NCBI GenBank assembly: GCA_964016885.1
Contig: OZ024763.1
Coordinates: forward strand, 1,860,001-1,924,000
Reading direction: 5' to 3'
From: Eledone cirrhosa
Lineage: Eukaryota
DNA length: 64,000 bases
Positions 12,705 to 52,627 of the stretch are shown piece after piece. The notes under the pieces were generated by a model that was not told where the DNA came from, searched no databases, and saw nothing but the letters and a program-made list of their open reading frames with translations. How positions within the stretch are numbered: the stretch's first letter is position 1; each line of letters opens with the position of its first letter. The position numbers and the translations under genes are program-made.

Positions 12705-12921
12705 GTCAACATGAATGGACCTGTTATTTTTATCTAAAGACATTTTTTCCAATTCCAACCCGCCCGTCCCTTCAATCTATCTTATTTCTCATTCTTTCTT
12801 CTGATGAAGGACTAGTTTCTGAAACATTAACACCCTCTTCCTGCTATATCAAGTGTTAACCTAATATATACCTTCCATATACTGTACCGATTGTGTTGTT
12901 ATTTCTGTTTACCATTTACAT
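12705..12921 (+). mobile_element. Putative Penelope-like 3' UTR remnant with degenerate hammerhead
   Basis: CTGATGA agga-ctagt-ttct GAAA cat taa at 12801-12830; stems I and III are poor; flanked by (TA)n. Confidence 0.35.
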
Positions 12922-12930
12922 ATATATATA

Positions 12931-13104
12931 CGTTATTCCGGGTTGAATCGGAGGTAACAACAGTAAGTAAGGTACTCAATACATTGCAGAGTATAAAAGT
13001 TTTAATATAGATGAGATTCTACAGGACTAGAACTGTTTCATTCTTTAGAAATCATAAAGAATGAAACAGTTCTAGTCCTGTAGAATCTCATCTATATTAA
13101 AACT
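12931..13104 (-). mobile_element. Family A fold-back element (hammerhead truncated within CUGAUGA)
   Basis: Same tail and arms as 38961-39151; palindrome ~12998-13104 with apex at ~13047-13055. Confidence 0.85.
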
Positions 13105-27783: not shown

Positions 27784-27977
27784 ATAGGAACCAGTAAGAC
27801 CCCGACAGCTGAGCTCAAGCCGTTTCGACGGCTAATTCTGGACTGAATTAGCCGTCGAAACGGCTTGAGCTCAGCTGTCGGGGTCTTACTGGTTCCTATT
27901 ACCCACTCTACTACCTCAAGTATTGAGTACTTTGGTGCGTTATGGTCCACCTGGTTCCTTACCACATTTCCTTCGTT
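27784..27977 (+). mobile_element. Family B fold-back element carrying the 3' half of a hammerhead
   Basis: Perfect 55-bp arms around a 6-nt loop (27839-27844); GAAA cggc-ttgagctca-gctg TC ggggtc; tail cactc...gagtac; within (TA)n. Confidence 0.85.
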
Positions 27978-28000
27978 ATATATATATATATATATATATA

Positions 28001-28334
28001 TCATCATCATCATTTTACATCTGCTTTTCCCTGCTTGCAAGGGTGGGACGGGAACTGATTCTGGCTTGATTTCTACAGCTGGATGCCCTTCCTAACACCA
28101 ACCTCATTTACAGTGAGTGCTGGGTGCTTTTTTGCCTTGGCACCTCCACAATCACTTTGCAGTGGAATGATAGGGACCCCAGTCCCTATCATCTCATTTC
28201 TACAGCTGAGTAAATTGGAGCAATGTGAAATAAAGTGTCTTGCTCAAGGAAACAACACATCACCTGGTCTGAGAATTGAACTCAACCTTTCGATTGCAAG
28301 GCCAATGCTCTAACCACTAAGCCATGTGCCTCCA
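28001..28334 (-). mobile_element. CORE-like SINE with RTE tail
   Basis: Reverse-complement homolog of 25648-25995. Confidence 0.88.
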
Positions 28335-29578: not shown

Positions 29579-32500
29579 TCATCATCATCATCATCATCAG
29601 CGTTTAACGTCCGTGTTCCACGCTTGCATGGGTTTGGACGGGGGTAGTCCCACTTGAGGCAAGAGTGATTGTCTTGCTCGCATAGGACTGTCTGGCAGGT
29701 TTTCTACAGTTGGATGCCCTTCCTAACACCAACCACATTTACAGTGTGGGTCTGGGAGGTTTTTACCGTGTTGCCTACACGGCCACATTACAGCGTGGAC
29801 TGTGTGTTTTTTTGTCGTGACACCTACACGATCTCATTTGTTTCGGCCTCGATGGCGCGGCACCAACATAACTTTACATAGAACGGGGTGGTGTGGATCG
29901 GGTGGGGGTGGTGGGACGGGGTGTATTTGTTAGAGATGCCTACTGACTGGAGTAGGTTTTACTATATATTTAGGTAAGGCGGGTCTTCTCTGTTACTGAG
30001 TACCGCCAAAGGTCTCGGTCCAGTGACATTGTCTTGGAGAGGTGTAAGTGTGTGATGTCGGAGTTTATCAGCTCGTCCCAGGTTTTTCTAGGTCTGCCTA
30101 TTCCGTGACTACCGTCTATCTTTATTGCCCTGCACTTTGTTATACAGCTATCGACTTTCATGCGCATCACGTGTCCATACCAACGTAGCCTTCTCTCGAG
30201 TAAACAACATCTGATCCCTCTTATCTCTAATTTATTCCTTAGTTCGTTTATGCTTTGCCGTTCACGTATATTACTGTTACACATCCAGCGGAGCATGCAA
30301 GCTTCGTTCCTCTCTAGTCTGCGTATATCCTCTGCACACAATGCCCAGGTCTCACTGCCATGCAGCATTGCTGTTCGTATGCAGGCATCGTACAACCTGC
30401 CTTTCATTTTTAGTGAGAACCCTTTAGCAGCTAATAGTGGTATAAGCTCTCTGAACTTTTTCCAACCAGTTCTGACTCTAGCTACAGTACTTTCAGAGCA
30501 CCCTCCCCCACTGCTGATTTTATCGCCCAGGTAACGGAAGCTGTCCACTATTTCTATAGAACCCTCTGCGCAATTGAAAGAGCTAGTAGTTTGTGGGCAC
30601 TTGCTGCTACTTATTGCACCAGAGCACCGGCCACATGTAAAATCTATGTTCTTAGTTAGCCTACCTGTGATCCCACTACATCTTTTATGCACCCATACTT
30701 TGCATTTAGGACATAAAATGGAGTTTCTACCTACGCCTTTCCTACACACCGAGCACGACCATTTCCCAGAAGGGACCGCCGCCTTGTTTTCTTTCCTACA
30801 AACTAGTACTTTGGTCTTAGCCAGGTTAATTTTAAGTCCTTTTGACTCTAGGCCGTGCTTCCATGTTTGGAATTTCTTCTCTAGCTCGGCCATTGATTCC
30901 GCTATGAGTGTCAGGTCGTCTGCGTATAGGAGTTCCCATGGGCAGCCTGTCTTGAACTCCTCTGTTATGGCCTGAAGGGCAATAATAAATAGTAGTGGAC
31001 TGAGAACAGAGCCCTGATGGACGCCGACTTTTACGCTAAACTCTTCACTATATTCGTTGTTAATTCTAACCTTGCTGACTGTTTCTTTATACATGGCTTG
31101 TATAGCCCTCACAAGCCATTCGTCAACGCCTAGTTTTCTAAGAGCCCACCAGATAATGGAGCGGGGGACTCTGTCGAAGGCTTTCTCCAAGTCGACAAAA
31201 GCTAAGTAGAGGGGTTTACCTTTAGCTAGGTACTTCTCTTGTAGTTGTCGTACTATGAAAAGAGCGTCTGTGGTACTTTTGCCTGACACAAACCCGAACT
31301 GCATTTCATCTAGGTCAATTCTCTCTCTGATTAGCTGCGCTATTACTCTTTCCGTGACCTTCATGACCTGGTCGATTAATTTAATGCCTCTATAGTTACT
31401 CCTATCTAGGGCGTCTCCTTTACCCTTATAACAGTTAACGATGATGCTGCTATGCCAGTCCTTCGGAACAACCCCGTTTTGTACGACTTGGTTAACTATG
31501 CGGGTGACCATGGTGTGTCCCACCGTGCCAGATGCCTTCAGCATCTCAGCAACTATTTCCGAAGGCCCAGCCGCCTTACCAGTCTTCATATCCTTGATTG
31601 CCTTACTTATTATACTCCCCTCGACTAACACTGCTGGTCCCTCTATTGGGTCGATATGGGGGAGACTGCCTTTCTCCCAATTATTCTCCTCATTTAGAAG
31701 CCTTTCATAGTGACACTTCCAAGCTACCTTCTTATCAGCGTCGGTGATGGCAAGTGTGCCATCGTCGTTTAGTACACACTTCTCCCCGACAATATCACGG
31801 TTTTCCTTGACGCATTGCCTAGCAATCCTGAACACCTCACGTTTTTGGTCATCGCGTTGTAGAACATGCTTGAACTTTCTTTCCTCAGCTTCCCTTCTTG
31901 CTAAGTACACTTGTCTCCTAGCTTCCCTCCTGGCCACTTGATAGTCCTCTCTACTTCCCCCATCCCGCCATACTTTCCAAGCCTGCTTTTTGGCCTTAAT
32001 TGACCCCTCCACCTTACTGTTCCACCACCATGTTACTCTCCTCCTGCCTACAGGCCTGCTCCAGCCACAGACCTCGTCTGTCGCCAACAGCAGGTTTGCT
32101 TTCAGAAATTCCCACTCTCCCTCTATATTGTCCGACTCTAAATGTTCTTCCTTACTGTCGAAAGCATCAAGTAATATGCTTTGAAATTTATTCCTGGCTG
32201 TGGGGTCCTTTAACTTCCATATTTTCCTCCTGAGGATAGTCCTCTTCTGTTGTCGAGTACGTCTCGTCCTGACTATGAGGTCGCTAATTATCAGTCTATG
32301 TTGGGAGGTGCATTCTTCATGGGGGAGGGATTTAGTGTTAACAACAGACACTCTGTCACGTCTTCTGGTAAGGATATAATCTACCTGGCTTGTGTGTTCC
32401 CCGGATCTATAGGTGATCAGGTGATTGTCACGTTTTTTGAAGTTAGTGTTACAGATAGTTAGGTTATTTGCATCACAGAATTCCAGGATTCTGGAGCCTT

Positions 32501-33112
32501 CCTCATTTCTAGTACCAAACCCATAGCCTCCATGGATTTCGTCGTAGCCGTCACAATGTTGTCCAACGTGACCATTTAGGTCGCCTGCGATAATTATATA
32601 GTCACTGTCGGATATTTGGGAGGTAGTTAGCATCAGTGTCTCATAGAATCTGTCTTTTATAGTGCCGGGCAGTCCGGATTGGGGTGCGTACGCAGATATT
32701 ACTGTCACCGTAGTTCTATTGAGGACAAGTCGTATTTTAATTATTCTGTCGTTCACTCTATTTACGTCTATTATCTTATCTGCCCACTTTTCTGCTACCA
32801 TGATTCCTACTCCACCCAGCCCATCGTCGTTTCCCACCCAGAAAAGCTTATAACAACGTTTTTTACCCTCAATGAACCTAGCAGACCCACCCCTCCACCT
32901 GGTCTCTTGAATACAACAAACATCGACCTCCTTACGTTCAAGCATTTCTACAACCTCGTTAGCGCGACCCTTTAGGGTGCCTACATTTATGGTACCAACT
33001 CTGAAGTTTTGGATTGCGTTTGGGGGTTGGGGGCGGTGAGGGGCGGGGGGCGATGGTGTTATGTTAGCCGTCCGCGGTCGAAACAATGAGGAGTGCTCGC
33101 ATTCTCGTCCAA
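29579..33112 (-). mobile_element. Near full-length RTE-clade non-LTR retrotransposon (subfamily 1)
   Basis: Single APE-RT ORF, ~390-bp 3' UTR and (GAT)n tail; no ATG or 5' UTR seen, so probably 5'-truncated just upstream of the endonuclease. Confidence 0.95.
29970..33086 (-). CDS. RTE polyprotein: AP endonuclease + reverse transcriptase + internal Cys-rich zinc finger
   Basis: 1038 aa with no stops; EN motifs GTINVGTL, IQET, AYAPQ, GDLNGH, VDYIL; RT motifs [33 protein letters not shown]; C-terminal [12 protein letters not shown]...GRPRKTW; annotated start is TTG. Confidence 0.93.
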   Translation of the reverse strand: MFRPRTANITPSPPAPHRPQPPNAIQNFRVGTINVGTLKGRANEVVEMLERKEVDVCCIQETRWRGGSARFIEGKKRCYKLFWVGNDDGLGGVGIMVAEKWADKIIDVNRVNDRIIKIRLVLNRTTVTVISAYAPQSGLPGTIKDRFYETLMLTTSQISDSDYIIIAGDLNGHVGQHCDGYDEIHGGYGFGTRNEEGSRILEFCDANNLTICNTNFKKRDNHLITYRSGEHTSQVDYILTRRRDRVSVVNTKSLPHEECTSQHRLIISDLIVRTRRTRQQKRTILRRKIWKLKDPTARNKFQSILLDAFDSKEEHLESDNIEGEWEFLKANLLLATDEVCGWSRPVGRRRVTWWWNSKVEGSIKAKKQAWKVWRDGGSREDYQVARREARRQVYLARREAEERKFKHVLQRDDQKREVFRIARQCVKENRDIVGEKCVLNDDGTLAITDADKKVAWKCHYERLLNEENNWEKGSLPHIDPIEGPAVLVEGSIISKAIKDMKTGKAAGPSEIVAEMLKASGTVGHTMVTRIVNQVVQNGVVPKDWHSSIIVNCYKGKGDALDRSNYRGIKLIDQVMKVTERVIAQLIRERIDLDEMQFGFVSGKSTTDALFIVRQLQEKYLAKGKPLYLAFVDLEKAFDRVPRSIIWWALRKLGVDEWLVRAIQAMYKETVSKVRINNEYSEEFSVKVGVHQGSVLSPLLFIIALQAITEEFKTGCPWELLYADDLTLIAESMAELEKKFQTWKHGLESKGLKINLAKTKVLVCRKENKAAVPSGKWSCSVCRKGVGRNSILCPKCKVWVHKRCSGITGRLTKNIDFTCGRCSGAISSSKCPQTTSSFNCAEGSIEIVDSFRYLGDKISSGGGCSESTVARVRTGWKKFRELIPLLAAKGFSLKMKGRLYDACIRTAMLHGSETWALCAEDIRRLERNEACMLRWMCNSNIRERQSINELRNKLEIRGIRCCLLERRLRWYGHVMRMKVDSCITKCRAIKIDGSHGIGRPRKTWDELINSDITHLHLSKTMSLDRDLWRYSVTEKTRLT

Positions 33113-33310
33113 TAAATTATTAAAAAAATAATGAATAAACAAAGAAACAGTTCCTTATATTAAAAAAAATTCATCATTTTACGATCGTTTCTAGGATATA
33201 TATGTGTTAGAGTTGGTATGCATATTCTATAGATCTATGTACAATATTTATACAAACTATCAGAGGGAATATACATACCTTCACATATATATGCTGTCTT
33301 CAGAAATAAT

Positions 33311-34678: not shown

Positions 34679-34684
<6 letters not shown>

Positions 34685-35180
34685 ATTAAATAAATGGAAA
34701 ACTATATTTATAAAACCATATTTATTTCATTATATATATTTCGGGGATATCATATTAACAATATGCTATGCCTTCATCAGACAAAATACAATATAAACAG
34801 TTTTATAGATAAATATATTCGACATACCGTAATAAACATCAACTTCATTTGAAGAGGTTCACTCTAGCAGTGATATACTGTATTTTCACTGTATTTTCAC
34901 TGCTAGAGTGAACCTCTTCAAATGAAGTTGATGTTTATTACGGTATGTCGAATATATTTATCTATAAAACTGTTTATATTGTATTTTGTCTGATGAAGGC
35001 ATAGCATATTGTTAATATGATATCCCCGAAATATATATAATGAAATAAATATGGTTTTATAAATATAGTTTTCCATTTATTTAATATTGTAAATATACTC
35101 CAAGTATTTGTCGAGTGCTTTTATATCAGTTATAAATATTTACTAGTTGTAACCCAACAATTTTAAATATAACTTTACAT
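34679..35180 (+). mobile_element. Family D fold-back element: 195-bp arms + 3' tail
   Basis: Arms 34679-34873 / 34897-35091 appear perfect; tail atactcca...gagtgc; in (TA)n. Confidence 0.9.
34982..35047 (+). ncRNA. Type I hammerhead ribozyme (family D); mirror copy at 34723-34788 (-)
   Basis: tattttgt CTGATGA [stem II with catatt/aatatg] GAAA t-atat-a TA atgaaata; AUA triplet, palindromic stem III. Confidence 0.75.
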
Positions 35181-35196
35181 ATATATATATATATAT

Positions 35197-35618
35197 ATAT
35201 TGTTATACTTTGGGAGGGTCATGTTGCCAATAAGAAACACACGCACCAGTTGCTTTCACTTCAATTTATTATATATTTATAAATTTATAAATTTACAAAT
35301 CTACAAACTTATAAATTTCTGGTTGGTTGGTTGGTTCCACAACCAGATAGTTGTTTATATATATATATATATATTGACTATATATATATATATTGACTAT
35401 ATATAAACAACTATCTGGTTGTGGAACCAACCAACCAACCAGAAATTTATAAGTTTGTAGATTTGTAAATTTATAAATTTATAAATATATAATAAATTGA
35501 AGTGAAAGCAACTGGTGCGTGTGTTTCTTATTGGCAACATGACCCTCCCAAAGTATAACAATATCGGTTTCAACACACGATTTCAGATAAAGAATCTTGC
35601 TAAACAAATTCAGAAACG

Positions 35619-40283: not shown

Positions 40284-40292
<9 letters not shown>

Positions 40293-40442
40293 GTTGAGAA
40301 GGTAACACACCAGAGAGAGATCTCTCTCTGGTGTGTTACCTTCTCAACATATTATATTTTAAAGGGCTCAGGATCTCTTCCCCTTTGAGCACATTATTTA
40401 CAGGGAATAACGACGGCCTATGCCTCCGTTAATTTATCGTGA
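40284..40442 (+). mobile_element. Family G fold-back element (perfect palindrome centred 40320/40321 + tail)
   Basis: aatatgttgagaaggtaacacaccagagagaga|tctctctctggtgtgttaccttctcaacatatt, then a gctca...tgagc hairpin. Confidence 0.75.
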
Positions 40443-40460
40443 TATATATATATATATATA

Positions 40461-40625
40461 TATAAGAGCTTCTACAGGACTAGAACTGTTTCATTCGTTA
40501 GAAATCATCAGGGAGCTGATGAAACAGTTCTAGTCCTGTAGAAGCTCTTATATATTGAAACTTTTATACTCTGCTATGTATTGAGTACCCTACTTACTGT
40601 GGTTACCTCCGATTCAACCCGGAAT

Positions 40626-40629
<4 letters not shown>
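40461..40629 (+). mobile_element. Family A fold-back element (hammerhead at 40467-40517 on -; the + arm lacks stem II)
   Basis: Homolog of 38961-39151; a further fragment lies at 40190-40220. Confidence 0.85.
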
Positions 40630-40664
<35 letters not shown>

Positions 40665-43333: not shown

Positions 43334-43390
<57 letters not shown>

Positions 43391-43397
<7 letters not shown>

Positions 43398-43753
43398 AAA
43401 AAGGGATGAAATCGAAAATGCAACTGAAGTCTTATTTTTTTAAAAATATATATATTTATTTGGTTCCTTTACCGGTTTCGCAGTTCTTCTGCTTTTCAAA
43501 AGGTGAGTTGAGATGGAGGGTCTGTGGTTTTTCTCACATCTGATGTGAGAAAAACCACAGACCCTCCATCTCAACTCACCTTTTGAAAAGCAGAAGAACT
43601 GCGAAACCGGTAAAGGAACCAAATAAATATATATATTTTTAAAAAAATAAGACTTCAGTTGCATTTTCGATTTCATCCCTTTTTCTTTATACTTCCACTC
43701 GTGTAGGACACCTCGGTTATTTTTCATTTTGTAAAAAAAACCTCACTTTCTAA
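43391..43753 (+). mobile_element. Family F fold-back element: 150-bp arms around a 1-nt loop (43541) + ~60-bp tail
   Basis: Symmetry checked at several positions (43391/43691, 43466/43616, 43503/43579); in (TA)n. Confidence 0.9.
43579..43616 (+). ncRNA. Minimal type I hammerhead with U3-A8 core (family F); mirror copy at 43466-43503 (-)
   Basis: cctt TTGAAAA gcag-aagaa-ctgc GAAA ccgg TA aagg. Confidence 0.7.
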
Positions 43754-43780
43754 TATATATATATATATATATATATGTAT

Positions 43781-49928: not shown

Positions 49929-52456
49929 TCATCATCATCATCATCATCATCACCGTTTTACGTCCGTTCTTCCACGCTAGCATGGGTTAGACGGGTTGTC
50001 CTGTTGTGGGCAGTGTCTGGTCGGCTGACCATGCCTTGCTCATACAGGAACTGATCTGGCTTGATTTCTACAGCTGGATGCCCTTCCTAACACCAACCTC
50101 ATTTACAGTGAGTGCTGGGTGCTTTTTCGTGGCGCCTACACGTCCACTTTACAGTGTGGGCTGGGTGCTTTTTTGCCGTGGCACCTCCACGACCACCTTG
50201 CGGTGGGGTGGGGGGGGGGCATATTGTTTATATGCTTCAGCATGTACCCATGGGAGGTCGGGTACCCTGTATTACTGCGTGACGCCAGAAGTCACGGTCG
50301 TGTGTCATTGACTTTGAGAGGTGTAGTTGGGTAAGGTCGGCTTTTATCACCTCATCCCAAGTCATCTTGGGTCTCCCCACTCCGCGGTTTCCATCAACTT
50401 CTAGTGCTCTGCACCTTTTTATGCAGCTGTCATCCTTCATACGCATCACATGTCCATACCAGCGTAACCGCCTCTCCTGCACGCAGCATTTGATTCCTCT
50501 TATGCTCAGTCTCTCTCTCAATTCATTTATGCTTTGTCGTTCACGTATATTACTGTTACACATCCATCGGAGCATGCAGGCTTCGTTTCTCTCTAATCTA
50601 CGTAAGTCTTCCACCTTCAGCGCCCAGGTCTCACTACCATGCAACATCGCTGTTCGGATACACGCATCATACAGTCTGCCTTTCATTCTGAGGGAGAAGC
50701 CTTTTGCAGCTAGCAGTGGTAGTAGTTCCCTAAACTTCTTCCATCCCGTTCTTACCCTAGTTATTGTACTTTCTGAGCACCCACCTCCGTTGCTAATTCG
50801 GTCACCCAGGTAGCAGAAGCTGTCTACTGTTTCTACAGGGCCCTCCCAGAGATTGGTGGTACTTGTTTCCTGTGGCTGTTTGCTTGCTGTTTCAGCACAG
50901 CTGCTGCATGTGAATCCTACATTCTTAATTAAGCTTCCTGAGATCCCGCTACATCTCTTGTGTACCCATTGTTTGCATTTGGGGCAAAGAATGGAGTTCC
51001 TACCTACACCTTTCCTACATACTGAGCAAGGCCATTTCCCTGAGGGGATCTGGGTTCTGTTTTCTCGTCTACTTATAAGGACCTTAGTCTTTGTCATGTT
51101 GACTTTGAGGCCCTTTCTCTCTAGTCCCTGCTTCCAGGTTTGGAATTTATTCTCTAGTTCTACCATAGATTCAGCTATGAGTGCGAGGTCATCAGCATAC
51201 AGGAGTTCCCATGGGCATCCGGTCTTAAACTCCTCCGTTATTGCCTGCAGGACTATGATGAACAGGAGAGGGCTAAGAACAGAGCCCTGGTGGACCCCAA
51301 CCTGTACGCTAAATTCCTCGCTATACTCATTGCCAATCCTAACTTTGCTGACTGCTCCCCTATACATGGCTTGTACCGCTTTCACAAGCCATTCATCTAC
51401 TCCTAGTTTTCTAAGAGCCCACCAGATTACTGCACGTGGAACTCTGTCAAAGGCTTTCTCAAGGTCGACAAATGCCAAGTAGAGTGGCTTACTTTTAGCT
51501 AGGTACTTTTCCTGTAATTGCCTCACAAGGAAGAGCGCATCAGTGGTGCCTTTCCCTGGTACAAACCCAAATTGCATCTCGTCTATATTCACCCGGTCCC
51601 TAATCAGCTGTGCTATAACTCTTTCTGTTACTTTCATGACCTGGTCCATCAACTTTATACCTCTATAGTTTCCTCTATCTAGTGCATCGCCTTTACCTTT
51701 GTAGCAGTTGACAATGATGCTACTGCACCAATCTTTTGGTATGGCCCCCTCTAGTATTACCTGGTTAACGATACGTGTGGTTATAGTGTGACCTACAGAC
51801 CCAGATGCCTTCAGCATCTCGGCAGCTATACCCGATGGACCGGTTGCCTTCCCTATCTTCATATCTCTGATTGCCTTACTTACTACGCTGCCGCTGACTT
51901 GTACTGCTGGTCCCTCTATAGGGTCTACGTGGGGTAGGGTCTCTTCTTCCCATGCATTCTCCTCATTTAGTAATCTATCATAATGACTCTTCCATGCATC
52001 TTTCTTCTCAGCACTTGTGAGGGCAAGCTCACCTTTATCATTCCGGATACACTTCTCTCCAATGACATCACAACTATCTCTGACACACTGCCTCGCAATC
52101 TTGAATACCTCCTGTTTCTGGTCCTCACGTTGTAAAACATGCTTGAATTTTCTATCCTCTGCTTCCCTCCTAGCTAAGTATACTTGTCGCCTAGCTTCCC
52201 TCTTGGTCTCTATGTAATGTACCCTGCTCCCCCCGTTCTTCCATTCTTTCCATGCCTGTCTCTTGGCCTTGACTGCTTCATCTACCTTATTGTTCCACCA
52301 CCAAGTCACTCTCCTCCTGCTTGAGGTCTTACTCCAGCCACAAACCTCATCCGTCGCCTCTAGTAAGTTATTTTTTAGGAACTCCCAGTTCTCTTCTACG
52401 TTAAATGTCTCTATCTGTTCTTCTTTACTGTCGTAGGCGTTGAGTAAAATATCTTT
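49929..52456 (-). mobile_element. RTE-clade LINE subfamily 2, 5'-truncated
   Basis: (GAT)n tail and 3' UTR; homology to subfamily 1 extends to 52456 ([13 protein letters not shown]), then (TA)n. Confidence 0.95.
50237..52456 (-). CDS. RTE reverse transcriptase + zinc finger (endonuclease lost by truncation)
   Basis: Uninterrupted frame with [29 protein letters not shown] and CSVC...CPKC..HKRC...CSSC. Confidence 0.88.
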
Positions 52457-52627
52457 ATGTGTATGTATATATATCTATATATATGTGTGTATGTATGTAT
52501 ATATATATATATATATGTGTATGTGTATATATGTATATATATATATATATATATGTGTGTATGTATATATATATATATGTGTGTATGTATATATATATAT
52601 ATGTATATATATGTATGCGTGTGTGTG

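Follow-up and report, generated by a model that had tools for sequence, protein, structure and literature searches.

The window analysed here, a 64,000-nucleotide stretch of the Eledone cirrhosa genome, contains an inverted repeat at 43391-43691 whose perfect 150-bp arms flank a 1-nt centre at 43541, as the earlier note had described. The repeat belongs to a larger insertion (43391-43759) that extends beyond the span originally flagged, with the plus-strand arm lengthened by a 68-nt tail. This insertion is probably a young, promoterless, head-to-head pair of pLTR copies derived from a high-copy Penelope-like retrotransposon (PLE). Element positions are numbered by the intact parent L085, with +1 corresponding to L085:1519 and to window position 43541. 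The locus comprises the following features.

43337 to 43394, no strand: left (TA)n microsatellite, the presumed target site judging from its sequence; TATA is common to the microsatellite and the element end.
43391 to 43541, minus strand: tail-less arm, parent pLTR +1 to +151, stopping at site 1, by identity to L085:1518-1669.
43466 to 43503, minus strand: minimal type I hammerhead motif with a U3-A8 core; predicted cut between 43470 and 43469.
43541, no strand: palindrome centre, equal to parent +1, a putative transcription start.
43542 to 43759, plus strand: tailed arm, parent +2 to +219, stopping at site 2, by identity to L085:1520-1737.
43579 to 43616, plus strand: minimal type I hammerhead motif with a U3-A8 core; predicted cut after 43612.
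43692 to 43759, plus strand: PLE tail of 68 nt, from site 1 to site 2; its final 8 nt merge into the TA repeat.
43753 to 43776, no strand: right (AT)n microsatellite, by its sequence the presumed second half of the target.

Both arms match the parent at 100% identity, with 43542-43759 corresponding to L085:1520-1737 over 218 nt and 43391-43542 to L085:1669-1518 over 152 nt. Since the median identity of sampled pLTR arms is 93.5%, the insertion is very young, and the recent event postulated from the perfect arms is borne out. The TATA box of the parent is missing from 43391-43759, and site 2 is located 21 nt upstream of the ORF1 start codon (ATG) in the parent. Four further perfect palindromes, their arms 37-195 bp long, are found in the window, so that such palindromes are common here. 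Palindromes at 34679-35200, 27784-28001, 12914-13104 and 40458-40663 represent three other repeat families, probably other PLE families, and share the same layout of (TA)n, arm, centre, arm, an extra tail of ~85-110 nt, and TA repeats. A perfect palindrome at 40284-40357, with 37-bp arms and no loop, adjoins (TA)n and matches two of the sequences searched, the window among them. The window also contains two long minus-strand open frames (29970-33116 and 50237-52474; 1048 and 745 aa), which we take to resemble endonuclease-plus-RT LINE proteins of the RTE type.

The 38-nt motif in each arm (43579-43616 on the plus strand, 43466-43503 on the minus strand) had been read as a minimal hammerhead with a U3-A8 core, and this parse is correct on both strands: a 4-bp stem I, a core from U3 to A8, a 4-bp stem II with a 5-nt loop, GAAA, and U16.1-A17, with helix III formed by a self-complementary 6-mer. 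The type I minimal core (N3-UGA-N-N8-A ... GAAA ... UH in a three-way stem layout) is present, and the hammerhead is placed in the pLTR on the sense strand. A search with the motif gave two matches in the window and none in 100 shuffles, and the window's only hits to a minimal-hammerhead descriptor were at the same two places, while 30 shuffles gave none; an Rfam search at the gathering score gave no match. The predicted cut positions in both motifs follow standard hammerhead numbering and fall at +72/+73 of the parent. In the plus-strand arm of the palindrome at 34679-35091, inspection by eye shows, at ~34995-35060, a CUGAUGA core separated from a later GAAA by a long irregular stem II, and this is a possible atypical hammerhead missed by the descriptor.

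In structure predictions, stems I and II form in a single copy of the motif but helix III does not (-6.4 kcal/mol), a double hammerhead is obtained when two copies are folded together (-20.3 kcal/mol), and the arms pair together (-85.3 for 43500-43700). Cleavage of RNA by the hammerhead in each arm is predicted to require a dimer, in keeping with part of the dimer idea put forward in the earlier note. The palindrome itself is not the dimer device, because a transcript through it carries the motif together with its antisense and so offers no partner. At 43391-43759 the hammerheads are likely inert.

Across the family, the 30-nt core carries U-A at positions 3/8 in 11,539 copies, C-A in 50, U-G in 22, and C-G in none; with only ~0.1 C3-G8 doubles expected by chance within the family (our own arithmetic), this within-family count is uninformative. 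Seven C3-A8 copies lie at C1:348863669-348949714, six of them ~9.6 kb apart; this is a segmental duplication in tandem, and the count of variants is inflated by it. Independent variation at the two positions, which had been proposed as an argument against the motif, is indeed seen among copies, but it is expected because promoterless copies mutate after insertion, making it unsound as a refutation. A point that weakens the case is that the outer stem I pair at +39 is missing in 71 of 150 copies. Per-region variation among copies is unusable as a test of selection, since many loci were chosen because their hammerhead matched exactly, and copies that are dead undergo drift. When positions 3/8 were left free in the descriptor, related PLEs yielded 20 motifs in 18 of 83 loci, all 20 with a Watson-Crick pair at 3/8 (14 C-G, 4 U-A, 1 A-U, 1 G-C) and 19 on the sense strand; the shuffle control for these loci gave two matches in 20 replicates, neither paired at 3/8. 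These sequence comparisons support covariation of a Watson-Crick 3/8 pair across PLE families and the assignment of the motif to a real class of minimal type I hammerheads. By the strict descriptor, 65 of the 83 related loci are without a hammerhead, including most of the closest relatives, and many of the contigs are short. Minimal hammerheads of other families with C3-G8 are present at L019:1954 and 2421, L083:7760 and 8225, and L045:5344, and two of these are same-strand tandems ~465 bp apart in a retrozyme-like arrangement.

The ribozyme variant itself is already published. In its accessible text, the study of Cervera and de la Pena (2014, PMC4209133) describes a U3-A8 minimal hammerhead in Schistosoma Cercyon with ~1,300 matches. 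It also reports that helix III is palindromic, that pairs on opposite strands are spaced by 100-700 bp, and that activity as dimers is low. The Eledone motif resembles the metazoan PLE hammerheads described there in its type I fold, short helix I, palindromic 15.2-16.2/loop 3, G10.1-C11.1, U3-A8 core, pLTR location, opposite-strand pairs, and predicted dimer. The reading of this case as unusual is therefore not supported, and with 19,605 matches in the genome it is not a singleton. A limited literature search for C3U/G8A together with Penelope found no paper, and this family or further U3-A8 cases may be listed in the supplements of PMC4209133 and PMC8557442. The value of the present case is in the counts that the family provides.

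The 19,605 matches to the 30-nt core were obtained at ≤2 mismatches in the 3.0-Gb genome (reversed control, 0), and 11,539 of them are exact. Longer copies have a GIY-YIG open reading frame upstream; a search with this frame gave 150 scored places, 11 of them with open frames of at least 770 aa (judged by eye), and four of 17 retrieved stretches hold ORF1 and ORF2 between two hammerheads 4.7-5.1 kb apart. The parent unit is ~4.7 kb long and consists of ORF1, without a Pfam match, followed by ORF2, in which a reverse transcriptase (RVT_1, under its cut-off) and a GIY-YIG endonuclease at the C-terminus (residues 682-772 of 775) are joined by a CX4CXXC linker, as read in the translation. The parent pLTR occurs as partial tandems, with an inverted truncated copy and a tail at one end. 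In the part of Craig et al. (2021, PMC8557442) available to us, Neptune/Nematis elements are defined by a CX2-5CXXC linker between the reverse transcriptase and the C-terminal endonuclease, and judged by its ORF2 sequence the parent is an endonuclease-positive PLE of this type. Other likenesses to the endonuclease-positive elements of that paper are the DKG motif, partial tandems, an inverted 5′-truncated copy, a tail at one end, and (TA)n targets; the tail is 68 nt here versus 30-40 there. The copy count and parent search that had been proposed for the motif thus lead to a very numerous Penelope-like element. Animal-type PLE sequences were also encountered in prokaryote assemblies (L238-L240, and P0012, P0037, P0041, and P0056 with bacterial labels), and are likely host contamination.

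A slippery U UUU UUA is in frame at L085:2892-2898 (C1:399395391), where ORF1 and ORF2 overlap by 88 nt, and ORF2 of the parent has no early ATG. Seven of the 13 examined loci have the same sequence in frame, at protein identities as low as 28%, and a conserved programmed -1 frameshift likely joins ORF1 and ORF2. A frameshift-separated ORF1 is mentioned in a figure legend of PMC8557442. Other classifications were considered and rejected. Membership in Naiad/Chlamys would entail an N-terminal endonuclease and the absence of a canonical hammerhead, and the domain is C-terminal here; a MITE is contradicted by junctions that differ among copies, by unequal ends, and by a parent encoding reverse transcriptase. 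The insertion resembles the non-LTR retrozymes, as outlined in the accessible text of a preprint (bioRxiv 10.64898/2026.07.22.740005), in that it is non-coding and PLE-derived and carries a type I hammerhead. Those elements form head-to-tail tandems with two hammerheads on the same strand, whereas the present locus is head-to-head and junctions vary among copies.

The architecture of the pairs was surveyed in the first 36.5 Mb of contig C1 in loci chosen by exact motifs, giving 183 arms, one of which was left out because it lay at a locus edge. The 3′ ends of the remaining 182 arms fall at +140 to +156 (site 1) in 63 cases, at +205 or beyond (site 2, tailed) in 107, and elsewhere in 12. Among 60 head-to-head pairs, 53 combine a site 1 end with a tail, six combine another or damaged end with a tail, one has two tails, and none has two site 1 ends, so that one tail per pair is the rule (53 of 54 versus an expectation of one half, p = 6e-15). 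The single pair with two tails comprises copies 3.3 kb apart and likely represents two insertions. Unpaired arms are tailed in 46 cases, end at site 1 in 10, and end otherwise in six. Either arm may reach farther 5′: in the 59 mixed pairs the tail-less arm is longer in 17, the tailed arm in 17, the two are equal in 23, and two are off the reference. Within pairs, diagnostic subfamily sites differ at only 20 of 243 positions, versus 46% in shuffled pairs, and this agreement implies one RNA, one source locus, or later homogenisation. In the sampled copies, TA repeats adjoin 155 of 170 ends (tail-less, 56 of 63; tailed, 99 of 107), with TA letters matching the target present at both element ends. 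Independent sequencing runs contain (TA)n loose ends at the place matching site 1. The pLTR of all copies contains a T/A tract that forms a small palindrome (43629-43650 at the locus); its T-to-A boundary shifts among copies, even between paired arms, at nearly constant length.

The 5′ ends were examined in 100 arms selected by a motif downstream of the hammerhead. They fall at -2 to +12 in 52 arms, farther upstream in 26, at +69 to +78 in five, and elsewhere in 17. The sole TATAWAW in the 519 nt upstream is positioned 30 nt before +1 (TATAAAA in the parent), and this spacing points to +1 as the putative transcription start of the parent. A predicted hairpin (+1 to +31) begins exactly at +1 and could shape the 5′-end hot spot. 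Among related PLEs, a TATA box ahead of the hammerhead is not general, as TATAWAW occurs within 150 nt upstream in only four of 17 hammerheads of related PLEs and is absent from 13. In the consulted portion of PMC2377424, the Penelope of D. virilis is described as having an internal, TATA-less promoter.

The joint occurrence of one tail-less and one tailed arm, either of which may be longer, with starts located off the cut site, fits twin priming on uncut mRNA, and we favour such priming, starting from an RNA that begins at +1, as the likely source of the head-to-head pairs. The parent mRNA would begin at +1 behind the TATA box, and the endonuclease would nick a (TA)n target on each strand. 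Reverse transcription would then be primed by one end of the target at site 1 (+151) and by the opposite end at site 2 (+219), each by a short TA match. Both cDNAs would pass through the uncut hammerhead, reach the 5′ end of the RNA, and be joined there, so that the centre of the palindrome would correspond to the transcription start. Hammerhead action in the parent would involve a pair of pLTR copies, in a tandem transcript or on two RNAs, and would probably be slow or protein-assisted. A limited literature search found no PLE paper using the term twin priming.

A snap-back route, in which the 3′ end of a site 2 cDNA folds back and primes a copy of that cDNA, with resolution at site 1, would draw on the self-priming and endonuclease-resolution ideas found in the accessible parts of PMC3846280 and PMC8557442, papers that also note inverted copies, a tail at one end, and a (TA)n bias. 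It accounts for the likeness of paired arms at subfamily letters, although matching arms are equally expected from one RNA primed twice, and it explains the present insertion and 22 other symmetric pairs as well as twin priming does, along with the 17 pairs in which the tailed arm is longer. Junctions of L013, L026, and L260 moreover match the +1 to +31 hairpin by eye. The 17 pairs with a longer tail-less arm, in which the tailed arm cannot be a copy of the tail-less one, make self-priming an unlikely explanation of the pairs. In L084 and L089, a tail-less copy of full length is joined to an inverted tailed arm that is short. Since fold-back of one cDNA cannot yield a tailed short arm from a tail-less long one, two priming events are needed at least where the tail-less arm is longer.

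If the hammerhead cut RNA in vivo and its 3′ product were the main template, so that the ribozyme set the 5′ ends of copies, arms should begin at +73. Three of the 100 arms do so exactly, but most pass the cut site to +1 or farther. A targeted search of junctions in +60 to +81 showed no pile-up, with +73 in one of 30 loci retrieved, and by eye +73 starts were seen in four of the 100 strings listed among 417 matches. The apparent surplus of 5′ ends where the ribozyme would cut accordingly does not hold up, and the templates appear to have been mostly uncut. Cut-dead mutants, moreover, still insert in the Anolis system, according to the available text of Frangieh et al. (2024, PMC11167929), and we regard cutting as the determinant of 5′ ends as highly improbable. 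Even less credence is due to the view that assembly or amplification created the palindrome as an artefact or that the motif is a chance look-alike. Perfect arms and five such palindromes in 64 kb might suggest an artefact, but each of the two arms ends at a fixed point of its own, arm divergence and a variety of junctions are seen in pairs elsewhere, and the same (TA)n end recurs in independent sequencing runs; against a look-alike, 3/8 pairing holds across distant families.

Twin priming on uncut mRNA has a close parallel in the Poseidon element PAc of Anolis, which, in the portion of PMC11167929 at hand, nicks and extends both strands, has two internal reverse transcription starts that bound the tail, and uses uncut RNA as template; its hammerhead is protein-assisted and dispensable for insertion. 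The two systems share adjacent paired starts that delimit the tail, AT-rich targets, and a mostly uncut template. They differ in that both starts precede ORF1 here, in an element of two ORFs known from its sequence, and in that these starts match the TA target by a few bases, whereas the PAc start is non-homologous to its target. A bolder version, in which twin priming is obligate, with site 1 and site 2 of the uncut mRNA leader each used by one target strand, thousands of palindrome centres map the start, and helix III mainly holds RNAs in a dimeric RT particle, is offered tentatively and is rather doubtful. Hammerhead cleavage may be a secondary role under that version, and pairs with arms differing at subfamily letters (L145, L017) would be two-template events if its RNA-pairing element were true.

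New here are the one-tail-per-pair rule, the finding that either arm may be longer, and the placement of 52 of 100 5′ ends near a TATA-linked +1. With ~20,000 young matches, 3′ ends that fall sharply at two points, and a sharp hot spot of 5′ ends, the family is a natural record of how PLE inverted insertions, named as unexplained in the available text of PMC8557442, are built. Its counts also address whether the hammerhead cuts the template, and the answer they give is mostly not. The intact parents open both questions, insertion and template cutting, to testing in vitro.
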